DNA of 64,000 bases, from positions 1,019,740 through 1,083,739 of the forward strand of contig OY760142.1 in assembly GCA_963663225.1 (NCBI GenBank). The letters run 5' to 3'. A program made the position numbers and the translations under genes. Below, piece by piece: positions 27,189 through 35,354 of the stretch. Positions within the stretch are counted from its first letter, which is position 1, and each line of letters opens with the position of its first letter. The stretch is from Nitrospirota bacterium (GTDB lineage: Bacteria > Nitrospirota > UBA9217). The notes under the pieces were generated by a model. The model searched no databases. It was given only the letters and a program-made list of their open reading frames with translations, and was not told where the DNA came from.

Positions 27189-27228
27189 AAGTGAATTAGC
27201 CCGCCCCTTGGGGCGGGCTAATTCACTT
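27189..27228. repeat. Perfect 19-bp inverted repeat (terminator-like or REP-like hairpin)
   Basis: AAGTGAATTAGCCCGCCCC-TT-GGGGCGGGCTAATTCACTT, touching the stop codon of the 719-aa gene. Confidence 0.85.
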
Positions 27229-29386
27229 ATCTCTCTTCCAGCCGGATGTAATCCACCACCAGCCTTTGTTCCGTGGGGACTGCCGCGTCACAAAGAATGT
27301 TCTGGACAATACTGATACTGTCTAGAGAAACAGGCTGTAAAACAGGCCCAGCCTTCGCAAGAACATCATAAAACGCTATTCTGAAATCCTCACCAAGTGG
27401 TACATACTCATCAATCGCAGTATAGCTCTCATTGCCACGGGTCGTAAAGTTGATTGACCGCGTTGATCCATCACCCATTCTTGCCTTGGCGACTACTCCC
27501 TGATATGCACCTGTCACCCACCCTCCGTTGCAAGGGCCCGATATCTGTTGATTAACGTCCATCGTATCTATTCTGAGGTTAATACGTGTAGCTGGAGTTA
27601 TTGCATAGGGAAAAACATCGGCGAACGCGCAGTCTAGCGGATATTCGCCAAAGTAACAATGACGATTACCTCCAGGATCAGTTGCAGTCCGGCTCGGGAT
27701 TCCTATGTAACTGTGATTACTCCATAAAACACCGGAATTCTCTTTAATCAGTCTCCCGTTGTCAACACGATGGCTTTGGTCAGTGGCCGGATACATGGTC
27801 ATCGCACCAAAGCGTGTTTGGACCCAGGCATGATTGCCGGTTAGTCCGTTGTCCCATTCCTCCCTCCACCATCGAACCGCTTTTCCTGCGACCGCACCCT
27901 CTTCATTCCCCATCCTGCCCTGAAATACGAGAAAATAAGTGTTTTTTTCTTTTGGCGCCGGGGTTGTCGGTGTGGGGAATGTGACCTGCGCGCTCTGTCC
28001 GGGAATGGTTTGCTGTCCATTTTGGATGGCTGGTCCAATAGTGATGTTTTCCCATTTGGCAATAAGAATGCGGTTGCTGCTCTCATCGTCATAGTAGAGG
28101 CTGAAGGTGCCGGAGACGTCCTCAGTGCTGCTGTTGATAAGGGCATACTGATCCATGGTTTCGCCGGCCGGCACGAGGCTTAGCTGCCCCCGGAAGAAGT
28201 AGTTCAACAACCCCGCGCTGTAGCCTACGGCGCGGGGGAGAAGCTCCTGGGCATAGGTTTCATGCACATTGTCGTCAAGCACAAGCGCTACATTGGGAAT
28301 GTTGGCATTCAGGCACGCACTACTGCCCAGGCAGGCCCAGTACTGCATCAGAGGGCTGACACGCCCGAAATGGTCGCATCCGTTCGCAGACATTCCTTTT
28401 CTGCTGATATATTTTTTCTTGTACATGACGCCAAGGGGACCGGTTGCCTCTTCTTCGCATATCTCGTAACCGGCGCTGGTGACGAACGGATTGGGGAAAA
28501 GGTGCGGCCTCGTCACACCATTGCTGGGGATCGTGTAGTCGCTGAAGTAGTTGGCGTTGGCAAATTCAGACAAACCGATTGACCAGCTTGTGGACGGATT
28601 GCTGCCCGTGTAGGTATCCGTGTCCCAGAATTTCGTAACGCTCATATCGGCAAAGGAAGGCATGGGAACACTTTGCAGGTTGGTTATGAGGACCGATTTT
28701 CTGCTTATGTAACGCTCAAACGGCTGGACAAAAAAATCTGTATTTATACTGAGCAGGTGCGACTCGAAATCGTTTCGCACGTGCGCCGGAACGGCCATGT
28801 CTTGTACAAGGTGCATCACCTGCCCCATAGCCTGAAATGTTTTTGCGAAGTTTATTTCTCTCATCTCACTACTTCCGGACGTCAACGCCAGATAGAAATA
28901 CTTCCTCGCATTGTCCCACGTGTTGGGTTCGCGGATGTCCGGCCATTGGGGAAAGGCCTGCTTTCCACCACCAGGCGAAGGCGATAAATACCCCGTTCCC
29001 CACGTCACCGCTGAATAACGCGTCCAAAACGTACACCCACTCTCCGCCCACAACGGATCATCGCTCATTCCGGACTGCTCCCACGGCAACAACGGATTAT
29101 GAAAATGATTCGCGCGACGGCAAACGACAGTATCTTCATCGGTAGAACCTTTTTTTAACAGTTCAATTACAGTGCTTTTGGGGTCTTGTGAATCCGAAGG
29201 AAACCGAGAAGTAAGCCCTTTTTCTAATCCTAATGCAGCTTTCAAATAGATATTAAGATTCGAAATGTCTCTTATAGCTTTTTCGCTAATTTGTGGATGC
29301 GTAATTTGCTCTTCAAACGCGAAGGAGGCAATCGGTGAAAAAATGATGGAGAGACATATTAATGAGGGCGCTATTTGCTTCTTCAT
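27227..29386 (-). CDS. Secreted zinc phospholipase C / P1-nuclease-fold protein with C-terminal beta-rich domains (gene B2, 719 aa)
   Basis: Signal peptide ending SFA|F; mature FEEQITH; GSTDED; NHFHNP; HLVQDMAVPAH (HxxxDxxxPxH); later FERY. Confidence 0.7.
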   Translation of the reverse strand: MKKQIAPSLICLSIIFSPIASFAFEEQITHPQISEKAIRDISNLNIYLKAALGLEKGLTSRFPSDSQDPKSTVIELLKKGSTDEDTVVCRRANHFHNPLLPWEQSGMSDDPLWAESGCTFWTRYSAVTWGTGYLSPSPGGGKQAFPQWPDIREPNTWDNARKYFYLALTSGSSEMREINFAKTFQAMGQVMHLVQDMAVPAHVRNDFESHLLSINTDFFVQPFERYISRKSVLITNLQSVPMPSFADMSVTKFWDTDTYTGSNPSTSWSIGLSEFANANYFSDYTIPSNGVTRPHLFPNPFVTSAGYEICEEEATGPLGVMYKKKYISRKGMSANGCDHFGRVSPLMQYWACLGSSACLNANIPNVALVLDDNVHETYAQELLPRAVGYSAGLLNYFFRGQLSLVPAGETMDQYALINSSTEDVSGTFSLYYDDESSNRILIAKWENITIGPAIQNGQQTIPGQSAQVTFPTPTTPAPKEKNTYFLVFQGRMGNEEGAVAGKAVRWWREEWDNGLTGNHAWVQTRFGAMTMYPATDQSHRVDNGRLIKENSGVLWSNHSYIGIPSRTATDPGGNRHCYFGEYPLDCAFADVFPYAITPATRINLRIDTMDVNQQISGPCNGGWVTGAYQGVVAKARMGDGSTRSINFTTRGNESYTAIDEYVPLGEDFRIAFYDVLAKAGPVLQPVSLDSISIVQNILCDAAVPTEQRLVVDYIRLEER
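28879..29113. repeat. 235-bp direct repeat, copy inside B2
   Basis: Aligns ungapped with 29997-30231; I counted 4 mismatches. Confidence 0.95.
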
Positions 29387-29952
29387 TTGGTTTGCCCTTT
29401 CATTCTTTTTTGATCTTTTTCGTTTTGTTCTTTGATAACCTTGTCTTCTTCCGCTACTGAATACATTTTGAAGAATAATTGTTTTCTTTCTGAATCGATC
29501 GTGCTATTAATAGCTCCTGTTGTAAACATATAATGATCTGTATAACTATAGGTGGTTTTAAATTTCTCCAGCATATATCTATTATTTGATGCCCATTGAA
29601 AATCTTTTCTATTTTCCCAAGTAGGGAATATATTTCTGCTGCTCCATGTTACAAAGCCTTTTTTATAAACAGCCAAATCCGGCTTTTCTACAAACGACCT
29701 GTAACATCCCGGCAGATCGAATTTCCCGTCTTTGTCCGTCAGCACCTCTGCAACCTTCACCGACTCCGTATGCTTGTCGCCGATCCCTTTCTTGATCGTC
29801 CACTCCACAAGCACTACAGCACCTTCAATCGGTTTTCCGGTCTCCGCATCCACGACCGTCCCCGTAATAGGAAGATAAGCGCATCCTTTGACATAACCGG
29901 CCAGAAGCGCCGCAATAATAATTGATGTGATAATTACTTTCTTGTTTTTCAT
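29383..29952 (-). CDS. Carboxypeptidase-regulatory-like beta-sandwich protein with signal anchor or lipoprotein-like signal (gene A2)
   Basis: Hydrophobic N-terminus ending VKGC; ITGTVVDAETGKPIEGAVV; ATGA overlap with B2. Confidence 0.8.
   Translation of the reverse strand: MKNKKVIITSIIIAALLAGYVKGCAYLPITGTVVDAETGKPIEGAVVLVEWTIKKGIGDKHTESVKVAEVLTDKDGKFDLPGCYRSFVEKPDLAVYKKGFVTWSSRNIFPTWENRKDFQWASNNRYMLEKFKTTYSYTDHYMFTTGAINSTIDSERKQLFFKMYSVAEEDKVIKEQNEKDQKRMKGQTK
29729..29952. repeat. 224-bp direct repeat, 5' part of A2
   Basis: Aligns ungapped with 30838-31061; I counted 12 mismatches, 11 of them synonymous. Confidence 0.93.
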
Positions 29953-34501: not shown

Positions 34502-34802
34502 AATCAGCGCCTCCTTGCCATCTATTCATTATAATAATATGCATAGAAGATGGCTGATTATGGTTTTCTTTTTGCTGTTTGTAAATACCACAAATTGGGT
34601 ATTTTATCGGAGAAATAAAAAATTGCAGGTTATTGCAGAAAGGCTCAAAGATAAGGATCGGGGACAATTTATATATATTTATAACTAATTTTTCTCTGTG
34701 CTACTTTCGAATAAAAACAGTTATTATCAGAACTTATCTCAGAAGCGGAAACGACCACCCCGCTCAGAAAGAATCGCGTCCTTAAGCAGACACAAATAGG
34801 TT

Positions 34803-35354
34803 CTAATCAATTTTTAAAAATTCTTGTGCAAGGTACTCACCGACATTGGTCGGCGTTATGAATTTGTAATGATTTCTTGGCTTACTCGCAGTATACGTTG
34901 CCGCAAACAAAATTTCACCAGTTGCTACATCAATCAGCCTTGCCGAGCAGTTGGAAATATAATCTCGGTACCCGCCGCTTGACAACCCGGCAAAACCATT
35001 TGCTATCGTTGCGCTCCCAACGATCATGGCATCTATTCCTTTTATTTTTCCGATAACCGACTGCTGATTTTGCAGAAGACCCGTGAGAGAAAGTCCTTGT
35101 TCAGCCAAAATTTTGTCAAGTTGAGCCCTTTCTATTATCGTGAATCTGGACTTGACCAAATTTGCGGACAGCGATTCTGCAACTGCCGATCCCATATCGG
35201 CAATGCTAGCGTCAAAAGGAACTATAGCAATTCTTTCAACTGATTTTAACCGTTGTGGATTGTTAACAAATTTCTTGGTTGTAATAGCGGAACACGCAGG
35301 TATGCAGACCAGACATATAATCAATATATTTAGCATCCAACTTGATTTTTTCAT
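34803..35354 (-). CDS. CsgG/HfaB-like lipoprotein
   Basis: Lipobox-like IPAC; RIAIVPF; FTIIERAQLDKILAEQGL; GIDAMIVGS; ARLIDVATGEIL. Confidence 0.7.
   Translation of the reverse strand: MKKSSWMLNILIICLVCIPACSAITTKKFVNNPQRLKSVERIAIVPFDASIADMGSAVAESLSANLVKSRFTIIERAQLDKILAEQGLSLTGLLQNQQSVIGKIKGIDAMIVGSATIANGFAGLSSGGYRDYISNCSARLIDVATGEILFAATYTASKPRNHYKFITPTNVGEYLAQEFLKID

Follow-up and report, generated by a model that had tools for sequence, protein, structure and literature searches.

A three-gene export cassette with linked variable blocks in its lipoprotein and its predicted phospholipase C-fold enzyme in a Nitrospirota bacterium

Gene content, conservation and predicted folds of the trio

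The 64,000-nt stretch of DNA analyzed here (the window; positions 1,019,740 to 1,083,739 of contig OY760142.1, Nitrospirota bacterium assembly GCA_963663225.1) carries, between rsmI and a DUF3124 gene (35437-35925), six head-to-tail open reading frames (ORFs) on the minus strand, five of which make up the cassette that is the subject of this work. In order of transcription, the six ORFs encode a CsgG-like lipoprotein of 183 aa (34803-35354; lipobox IPAC; PF03783, 1.6e-12), a Sec-exported immunoglobulin-like (Ig) repeat protein of 1124 aa, termed gene 1 (31127-34501; signal peptide cleaved between ASA and AE; Glucodextran_B, Big_7 and PKD domains), a probable lipoprotein of 188 aa, termed A1 (30495-31061; lipobox VKGC; CarboxypepD_reg, 2.7e-7), the 167-aa product of a 5' fragment of gene B that has a start codon and signal peptide of its own, termed Btr (29995-30498), a 189-aa paralogue of A1, termed A2 (29383-29952; lipobox VKGC), and the Sec-exported protein B of 719 aa (27227-29386), which has a signal peptide and no Pfam family at threshold. 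All six translations display a basic n-region, a hydrophobic core and either a plausible cleavage site or a lipobox; of the two B copies, one has its cleavage site between GLA and Y and the other between SFA and F. The initial annotation had described six co-directional genes with export signals and AT-rich segments, and ORF calls, translations and GC content bear this out. Against a window mean of 0.506, GC content is 0.341 at 29150-29600, 0.378 at 30250-30680, 0.349 in the intergenic region 34502-34802 and 0.411 in the CsgG-like gene. The six ORFs represent only four families, since Btr is a fragment of B and A1 and A2 are paralogues, and the reported position directly after rsmI is correct as to adjacency, but rsmI (26223-27095, plus strand; TIGR00096, 8e-81) is convergent with B. 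Pfam scans of ORFs of at least 90 aa across the whole 64 kb found neither a secretion apparatus nor a transposase, integrase or reverse transcriptase, confirming the earlier statement that the window holds neither secretion machinery nor mobility genes, and assigned the remaining genes to ordinary metabolism, signalling and transport. The six proteins returned no match to PADLOC anti-phage defence models at E<=0.01, and A, B and the CsgG-like protein all lacked an NCBIfam match.

The 301-nt, AT-rich intergenic region on the 5' side of gene 1 (34502-34802, minus strand) contains a terminator-like hairpin at 34795-34774, just 3' of the CsgG-like stop codon and identified by pattern match only, followed by a sigma70-like site at 34585-34557, identified by consensus match only. 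The cassette's own transcription unit hence likely starts within this region. Both A genes overlap the following gene by 4 nt (ATGA; A1 stop with Btr start, A2 stop with B start), and this overlap suggests that A and the adjoining B or Btr are translationally coupled.

Conservation of the locus was assessed by scanning one genome per species in 185,579 species genomes. The scan returned 465 pattern matches, 441 of which encode a B relative, in Nitrospirota, Desulfobacterota, Rokubacteria, NC10 and other taxa. A total of 79 loci (78 non-redundant) from other lineages were taken with flanks of up to 10 kb, and their ORFs were searched with the proteins of the window. The 78-locus sample spans Nitrospirota, Desulfobacterota (Smithella, Geobacter, Desulfosarcina, Desulfobulbaceae), Rokubacteria, NC10, Binatia and others, and includes several cultured strains. 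Of the 71 full-length B genes with sufficient upstream sequence, 66 are immediately preceded by an A gene, and 53 of 65 A-arrays are in turn preceded, again immediately, by a gene whose product ends in the gene 1 C-terminal module, so that the trio follows a fixed order of C-module protein, A and B. In all-versus-all clustering of the flanking ORFs, no other gene family was present in more than 9 of the 78 loci; the CsgG-like, DUF3124 and RsmI proteins were found at none of them, and no outer-membrane export route was recurrent in these flanks or encoded in the window. The conserved unit is therefore a variable N-terminus joined to an Ig/PKD/unassigned C-terminal module, followed by A and B. 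The four-family association proposed in the initial annotation thus stands for the Ig protein, A and B, and fails for the CsgG-like member. Our literature search found no description of this cassette.

The B family is large. A word-indexed protein search retrieved more than 1,476 homologues, all labelled hypothetical and mostly from metagenome-assembled genomes (MAGs) of Nitrospirae/Thermodesulfovibrionales, and HMMER searches with B residues 1-400 yielded 3,813 clusters (50% identity) at E<=1e-3 and 2,105 at E<=1e-10. No name, Pfam model or literature was found for this enzyme family. Cultured carriers include Desulfosarcina alkanivorans PL12, D. widdelii PP31, D. cetonica, Desulfogranum japonicum DSM 18378, Desulforhabdus sp. 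TSK and Desulfurivibrio sp. D14AmB. In several genomes, three to four complete cassettes are found in tandem within ~20 kb (L004; L021/L024, which belong to a single 686-kb MAG contig; L052, the D. alkanivorans PL12 chromosome), with the secondary cassettes bearing a minimal first gene of 245-385 aa that comprises little beyond the conserved C-terminal module. Other arrays take the form A-A-B (L009, L016, L041) or carry an extra A after B (L022, L069). At L040 (9356-12097), A and B occupy one 913-aa frame with no stop codon between them, which may be either a read-through fusion or a sequencing error; B retains its own Met and signal segment, and this A-B fusion was accordingly set aside as uninformative. 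An apparent Ig-A fusion in L072 was rejected as an artefact of a high-GC alternative frame.

Within gene 1, the signal peptide is followed by an N-terminal propeller-like region of ~330 aa, Ig repeats and a PKD domain (Pfam: Glucodextran_B, 1e-42 over four stretches; Big_7, 3e-14; PKD_4). Only its last ~285 aa are shared across loci, always at the C-terminal end of the partner protein: residues 850-1124 are covered by 63-74 of 76 matches, and residues 1-350 by only 1-2. This conserved C-module (aa 838-1124; 31130-31990, minus strand) comprises an Ig-like domain, a PKD domain and an unassigned C-terminal domain. The size of the upstream partner ranges from 245 to more than 3,132 aa across loci, and in some of them the whole first gene (245-326 aa) amounts to the C-module alone. 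With its highly variable and often giant N-terminal part, gene 1 looks like an adhesin. A sorting domain for type IX, type I or type V secretion was considered and discarded, the last ~110 aa giving no Pfam match even at E<=1.

The CsgG-like protein reaches 47.7 bits against PF03783, above the gathering cut-off of 20.8, and its gene is co-oriented with and adjacent to the cassette in the window and in two close relatives, L080 and L081, which are introduced below. As in the curli channel protein, a lipobox is present. In contrast to CsgG, the protein is short, aligns with profile positions 36-155 of 210 only and, used either as a single sequence or as a 20-orthologue profile, has no match at E<=1 among solved CsgG chains in the PDB; no homologue of csgA, csgB, csgE or csgF was found in the window. 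The gene adjoins the cassette only in L080 and L081, being absent from the 78 distant loci, and its orthologues (63-73% identity) are located next to beta-oxidation, DUF1059 or response-regulator genes, with neither the cassette nor DUF3124 beside them. Because of this absence from distant loci and the unrelated neighborhoods of its orthologues, the CsgG-like gene, which is moreover parted from gene 1 by the terminator-like hairpin and the 301-nt gap, is a bystander outside the conserved unit. The role of outer-membrane conduit or anchor assigned to it in the initial annotation is contradicted by the same evidence, and this CsgG-family neighbor should not be annotated as the secretion channel of the unit.

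Structure prediction provided the fold class of the remaining two members of the trio. The A2 model (pLDDT 91.7) consists of an N-terminal signal/anchor helix and a sandwich domain (residues 29-128), after which a short helix leads to a long one at the C-terminus, and its best fold matches are transthyretin-like/CnaB domains; the family alignment shows a canonical lipobox in most A family members. The AlphaFold (AF2) model of B, built with 28 homologues (pLDDT 82.4, pTM 0.81), has a helical domain (~24-400), a beta-sandwich (~402-510) and a C-terminal jelly-roll-like domain (~520-719). Its top Foldseek matches in the PDB are the alpha-toxins 1ca1, 2wxu, 1olp and 1kho of Clostridium perfringens and C. 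absonum (E 3e-4, probability 0.99), and the Bacillus cereus PC-PLC 2ffz ranks 48th (probability 0.97). Fold-match probabilities lie overall between 0.92 and 0.99, and TM-scores are low because the query has multiple domains. The C-terminal domain is matched by GH12-type jelly rolls and is replaced after residue ~500 in relatives of B by PD40, FG-GAP or GEVED domains.

Residues H192, D196, H202, D206, H210 and E224 are invariant among 28 B family sequences of 34-88% identity, and conservation at H30, D85 and H94 reaches at least 90% in the same set. The spacing H192-x3-D196-x5-H202 is that of the PC-PLC zinc ligands H118, D122 and H128, and the predicted mature N-terminus, aromatic in nearly all family members, parallels W1 of PLC/P1 nuclease. 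On this pattern, the conserved His, Asp and Glu residues may be provisionally assigned to individual zinc sites. Weak PF00882 matches were found in 13 of the 28 family members (best E 0.01), and PF02265 and Het-C gave no match; a PDB sequence search with B alone gave nothing useful. On account of the fold matches, the conserved ligands and the weak PF00882 matches, the N-terminal domain of B is best modelled as a divergent, unnamed branch of the Zn-dependent phospholipase C/P1 nuclease superfamily. The predicted architecture is alpha-toxin-like, a helical domain of the tri-zinc type preceding beta domains, and the earlier designation of B as an enzyme is supported by this modelled fold and its invariant ligand set. 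B differs from alpha-toxin and PC-PLC in falling below the Pfam threshold, in the length of its conserved domain (~400 versus ~250 aa, with an additional conserved segment at aa 250-400) and in its variable C-terminal domains.

Paired variable blocks in A and B

The cassette of the window departs from the minimal trio in that a second A gene and a truncated B precede the complete pair. A1 and A2 are 68% identical overall, and this identity is unevenly distributed: the first ~84 aa are almost identical and the tails have diverged, with successive 20-residue windows showing 95, 100, 100, 100, 70, 55, 30, 35 and 45% identity. Btr corresponds to B residues 1-167/169 (64% identity, E 2e-74) and is closed by an in-frame TAG, beyond which degenerate similarity to B persists for ~10 codons, to ~29965, with tblastn extending the similarity to B residue 180, after which the junction alignment places the start of the A2 ribosome-binding region. 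Two direct repeat pairs, D1 and D2, both on the minus strand and with copies ~1.1 kb apart, underlie this arrangement. D1 (300 nt, 82% identity) links the N-terminal half of A2 (29593-29892) with A1 (30702-31001), and D2 (244 nt, 97% identity) links B residues ~89-169 (28879-29122) with Btr (29997-30240). A tandem duplication with its left end upstream of A and its right end inside B is what would produce an A1 plus Btr unit of this kind, and this is how we read the sequence.

Arrays of the form A-Bshort-A-B are found in 11 of the 78 loci, some with two short units, and the same Btr-type fragment is present in both L080 and L081. The truncation points of short B genes vary across loci from residue ~105 to ~295, which indicates that the arrays arose independently and that the short genes are by-products of duplication instead of a defined isoform. 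These varying end points and the degenerate tail in the window led us to reject a fixed domain boundary for the truncated protein, and short B genes should not be annotated as separate proteins.

The conserved repeats flank two hypervariable blocks, D1 constituting their upstream and D2 their downstream flank. Block alpha (30250-30680, minus strand) extends from the A1 tail over the gene boundary into Btr, of which it takes in the signal peptide and N-terminal ~85 aa; block beta (29150-29600, minus strand) covers the A2 tail and the signal peptide and first ~85 aa of B. Both blocks start near residue 100 of A and coincide with the AT-rich patches of GC 0.378 (alpha) and 0.341 (beta). The variable stretch of mature B, hereafter the lobe, comprises ~60 residues between the conserved ligands H30 and D85, and conservation resumes after the block with an 'RRANHFHNPL...YLALT' segment.

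The metagenome contigs L080 and L081 come from close relatives of the window. Gene order is CsgG-like/Ig/A/Bshort/A/B/rsmI in L080 and ABC-F/histidine kinase/DUF3124/CsgG-like/Ig/A/Bshort/A/B in L081; presence or absence of the island among close relatives, a comparison put forward in the initial annotation, was thus not seen, both contigs carrying it with the same synteny. Between the window and L080, the end of the CsgG-like gene, the intergenic region, the Ig gene, B residues 89-719 and rsmI are 92-97% identical at the nucleotide level. Over block alpha, nucleotide identity is 43-57%, and 23% in one 60-column alignment window that is half gaps, between flanks of 92-97%; over block beta, it is 37-57%, and 23% in one window of more than half gaps, between flanks of 95-98%. 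Taken as a whole, the two blocks fall to 45-52% nucleotide identity and have no detectable DNA homology to their L080 counterparts. Full-length B carries beta in the window and another type, delta, in L080, and the other 630 codons differ by 4%.

Four block types were recognized among the three close relatives, and the type of the A tail is always linked to that of the B lobe. Alpha is present in unit 1 of both the window and L081 (tail/lobe identity 95%/94% aa) and gamma in L080 unit 1 and L081 unit 2 (98%/95% aa); beta is restricted to window unit 2 and delta to L080 unit 2. Different block types are 28-51% identical to each other, and in all pairs the N-terminal 100 residues of A (86-98% identity) and the middle segment of B (95-100%) are conserved. 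The second B of L081 is cut off by the contig end at residue 131, and an assignment of gamma to a full-length B in L081 was withdrawn for this reason. P0034, a full-length paralogue of 781 aa with only 36% overall identity to the B protein of the window, shares 93% identity in its lobe with the gamma lobe of the L080 Bshort (4470-4943), and this likeness stops at the conserved GSTDED motif, which suggests block exchange between paralogous loci. The synonymous divergence (dS) between the window and L081 is 0.06-0.09 in block alpha and 0.62 in the N-terminal half of A1 (30810-31061 versus L081 10001-10300), implying that block and flank have different histories. Mosaic recombination of the alpha block and its flank fits these values, to the extent that the L080 and L081 assemblies are correct.

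Contigs of three related metagenome populations cover the region at 88% likeness or more, and only 29143-29469, the beta block, has near-zero depth. Contigs break at the repeats. Isolate runs X1 and X2 revealed neither heterogeneity nor recombinant joints, and no reads of run X21 could be mapped. B, the Btr/A2 junction, gene 1 and the CsgG-like gene are represented among the contigs from run X17; this run is labelled RNA-Seq but may include DNA, and the depth of contigs does not measure expression. The same identity profile recurs in independent lineages, within the arrays of L005, L014, L021, L024, L029, L046 and L053: the first 100-140 residues of A are 85-100% identical and its tail 25-50%, and the first ~80 residues of B are 10-60% identical, followed by 75-100% up to the truncation point.

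A diversity-generating retroelement (DGR) was considered as the source of variation and rejected, there being no reverse transcriptase domain among the window ORFs and no adenine bias among the seven D2 mismatches (T>C, C>A, C>G, A>G, T>G, A>C, T>G). An invertase or another phase-variation device was likewise not found in the window. The ratio of non-synonymous to synonymous substitution rates (dN/dS) of the truncated fragment is 0.16 overall, a value driven by the repeat, which has probably been gene-converted from B.

Functional interpretation and comparison with known systems

The evolutionary and architectural description of the locus given above is held with high confidence. What the trio does is a more tentative matter. 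We read A and B as a cognate pair, probably an inhibitor or immunity protein and its effector, diversified by recombination and carried in a trio cassette that excludes the CsgG-like gene; this claim as a whole falls somewhat short of an even call, and the functional part of it, cognate inhibition of an effector, is a little more doubtful when taken by itself. Under this reading, B would be a secreted or surface phosphoesterase effector, and A, through specific contact of its tail with the N-terminal lobe of B, might keep the enzyme inactive in the periplasm of the producer until it leaves the cell, in the manner of a periplasmic lipoprotein immunity protein. Gene 1 would serve in attachment or carriage. 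Homologous recombination in the conserved flanks would duplicate, delete and exchange whole blocks, and thereby keep tail type and lobe type linked, and A1 with the truncated B would represent a spare specificity module, providing both one more A of the immunity type and a source block for recombination, with putative active switching.

Four considerations favor an inhibitor and effector pair. Conflict or recognition loci are typically marked by allelic-class variation between near-identical strains; the supposed protector builds up in additional copies; A is predicted to be a periplasm-facing lipoprotein, like immunity proteins against periplasm-acting phospholipase effectors; and the modelled architecture of B is that of a membrane-attacking toxin. 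The role of adaptor or immunity protein suggested for A in the initial annotation is consistent with the linked variation of A tail and B lobe. A set of observations weighs in the opposite direction. The PF00882 (Zn_dep_PLPC) match of B (E 0.066, 13.6 bits) lies below the 26.8 cut-off, and a PDB sequence search with the B profile returned no match. The outer-membrane export route through which B would depart is absent from the window and not recurrent near the cassette, and the polarity of the locus is opposite to that of described polymorphic toxin systems (PMC3482391). Within the mature catalytic domain only ~60 residues vary, the signal peptide varies with them, and a block that includes the signal peptide fits whole-block replacement without proving selection on an interface; contiguity alone could account for the linkage of tail and lobe. 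The short-read L080 and L081 contigs cross ~250-nt repeats, so that a mis-joined unit order is possible. The Btr lobe, finally, offers 3 synonymous and 6 non-synonymous changes, too few for an adequately powered dN/dS estimate.

The main rival, which we consider fairly unlikely, is a non-antagonistic envelope module in which B docks on A as its dedicated membrane anchor or chaperone, and the cell surface or matrix is remodelled or decorated by the three proteins together. The enzyme B would in that case be a housekeeping phosphoesterase acting on lipids, teichoic-like polymers or extracellular DNA, and the divergence of tail and lobe would insulate coexisting cassettes from one another. The three to four tandem cassettes of several genomes (L004, L021/L024, L052) are well suited to this explanation, as are the joint conservation of the trio with no demonstrated immunity-only islands, the conservation of the catalytic core of B, which is not replaced, and the lack of linked delivery machinery. 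Insulation does not, however, explain why unrelated blocks occupy the same position despite flanks that are 92-97% identical, nor does it account for the build-up of extra A and A-Bshort units in 11 independent loci. A further rival takes Btr to be the dead remnant of a tandem duplication and the blocks to be parts that gene conversion has missed, devoid of functional meaning. Such neutral decay would be in keeping with truncation points that differ among lineages (B ~105 to ~295), with the degenerate 3' end and in-frame TAG of the fragment in the window and with a dN/dS of the fragment lobe that, on few substitutions, is not distinguishable from 1. It is nevertheless improbable, given that Btr still has a start codon, a signal peptide and the catalytic residues and persists in all three relatives, that full-length B genes also have differing lobes when the rest of the gene (630 codons) is 96% identical, and that block types are shared across genomes at 94-98% and otherwise only 28-51% identical, which amounts to an allelic-class structure.

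Exchange of an exposed A tail and B lobe as surface variation against phages, predators or grazers, altering an epitope or receptor and with DNA adjacency as the only reason for their linkage, would accommodate several of the same facts: the blocks span a non-mature signal peptide and a gene boundary, as expected of DNA-tract replacement, their GC content is deviant (0.34-0.38), and gene 1 is adhesin-like with a hugely variable N-terminus. This is quite improbable, for neither segment is an obvious exposed receptor: A is predicted to be a lipoprotein whose tail is short, and in the model the lobe of B belongs to the catalytic domain and packs round the metal site; no invertase, DGR or phase-variation device accompanies the blocks, and the conserved 4-nt overlap of A and B suggests a stoichiometric pair. 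Far less credible is the self-contained surface-display or delivery system of the initial annotation, with the CsgG-like protein as conduit or anchor, which is largely refuted by the co-occurrence survey described above, the check that this annotation itself had named; the Ig protein, A and B do form a unit, and it is the encoded outer-membrane route that is missing from this proposal.

The preferred reading, A as the cognate inhibitor of an effector B, calls for comparison with known conflict systems, all of which differ from the cassette in some respect. Polymorphic toxin systems carry a variable C-terminal toxin on a conserved trafficking or filament N-region and have the immunity gene directly downstream (PMC3482391). 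As in the loci of CdiA-CT/CdiI, Rhs-CT/RhsI and MafB/MafI, the variable enzyme part and its partner are here contiguous, conserved sequence beside a variable block permits recombination, truncated extra modules are stacked by the main gene, and unrelated modules are found in close relatives. The lipoprotein gene mafA precedes the toxin gene in maf islands. In contrast to these loci, the partner of the cassette is encoded upstream, it is the N-terminus of the enzyme that varies, the catalytic domain being conserved except for one lobe, and the spare units are upstream 5' fragments with their own starts; moreover, no type II, V, VI or VII secretion, PVC, PrsW or known trafficking domain was found in the window or recurred in the flanks of the 78 loci. 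The cassette thus departs from the definition of a polymorphic toxin system in its architecture and, judging from relatives that are metagenome assemblies, appears to share the recombination-driven modular diversity of these systems.

In the pairs of colicin E DNases and Im proteins, the core of the enzyme is conserved, and a patch on its surface varies together with the small inhibitor that is its cognate partner. In the Tle/Tli pairs of type VI secretion (T6SS), an established pattern, a periplasmic lipoprotein neutralizes a phospholipase (PMC13133936), and A as the lipoprotein partner of a B with a predicted phospholipase fold would resemble them. A differs from both types of inhibitor in lacking any sequence or fold relation to them, its model being a transthyretin-like sandwich with a helical tail. 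The strings of esaG and tsaI genes associated with type VII secretion consist of non-identical paralogues, and recombination between tandem copies reshuffles the repertoire (PMC9484751); they share with the A arrays the tandem arrangement of paralogues with conserved and variable segments, but they comprise immunity genes only, lie downstream of the toxin and belong to Firmicutes, whereas the units described here carry an enzyme fragment. Fungal het-c allorecognition employs a domain of the same superfamily, a remote relative of PLC/P1 nuclease, in self/non-self discrimination, and Het-C domains occur in bacterial toxin-like systems as well (PMC3482391). This parallel is conceptual only: B has no Pfam Het-C match, the organisms are others and no HET-domain partner is present. 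The locus is no curli/CsgG system, DGR or known defence system.

A wider claim, which we regard as unlikely on present evidence, is that the cassette represents an unrecognized class of Sec-dependent polymorphic effector-immunity or kin-recognition systems in Nitrospirota, Desulfobacterota, Rokubacteria and NC10, with specificity residing in the exchangeable B lobe and A tail and with the upstream 5' fragments and their own lipoprotein genes serving as a spare library from which homologous recombination transfers blocks to the full-length gene, in mirror image to the orphan arrays of contact-dependent inhibition (CDI) and Rhs loci. The organisms that carry the cassette dominate anoxic sediments, groundwater and digesters, and their interactions are little known. 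If A and B are indeed a cognate inhibitor and effector, the cassette would constitute a new conflict-system architecture, defined by a variable N-terminal lobe, an upstream partner and 5' orphan fragments, and its naturally matched and mismatched pairs would lend themselves to the study of specificity in an enzyme with a PLC fold. The existence of cultured carriers makes the idea of cognate pairing testable.

Other features of the window

A GC-rich hairpin with a perfect 18-bp stem (AAGTGAATTAGCCCGCCCC-TTGG-GGGCGGGCTAATTCACTT) is located at 27189-27228, in the gap between rsmI and B, whose stop codons face each other, and is kept in L080. It likely acts as a bidirectional terminator. A near-copy with 2 mismatches is present on another contig of the assembly of the same organism, on the basis of which the hairpin may double as a dispersed REP-like element. 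At the opposite end of the island, the 62-nt spacer between the CsgG-like start and the DUF3124 stop (35374-35437) is replaced by 85 unrelated letters in metagenome populations X6, X8 and X17, a small indel-type polymorphism.

Just upstream of NAD synthetase and rsmI, the region 22475-24452 encodes an AIR-carboxylase-like protein of the LarB type followed by the nickel-insertion protein LarC (PF01969, 3e-152), and the two genes probably make the lactate-racemase cofactor. Three successive paralogous genes encoding proteins of ~250-270 aa with similar N-termini are found at 2253-4740; the first, which was the one scanned, combines a response-regulator receiver domain with PilZ. Five ORFs encoding proteins of 220-522 aa (43970-45538, 15121-15999, 16751-17680, 54742-55614 and 60477-61139) had no Pfam match at the thresholds used. 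A TraB/PrgY/GumN-family gene (15897-16850) is flanked and overlapped by two of these five ORFs, with boundaries that are uncertain owing to the crude ORF calls. Two P-type cation ATPases are encoded at 51211-53865 and 55896-58607, enclosing a gene with a pterin-binding domain and an unassigned ORF.

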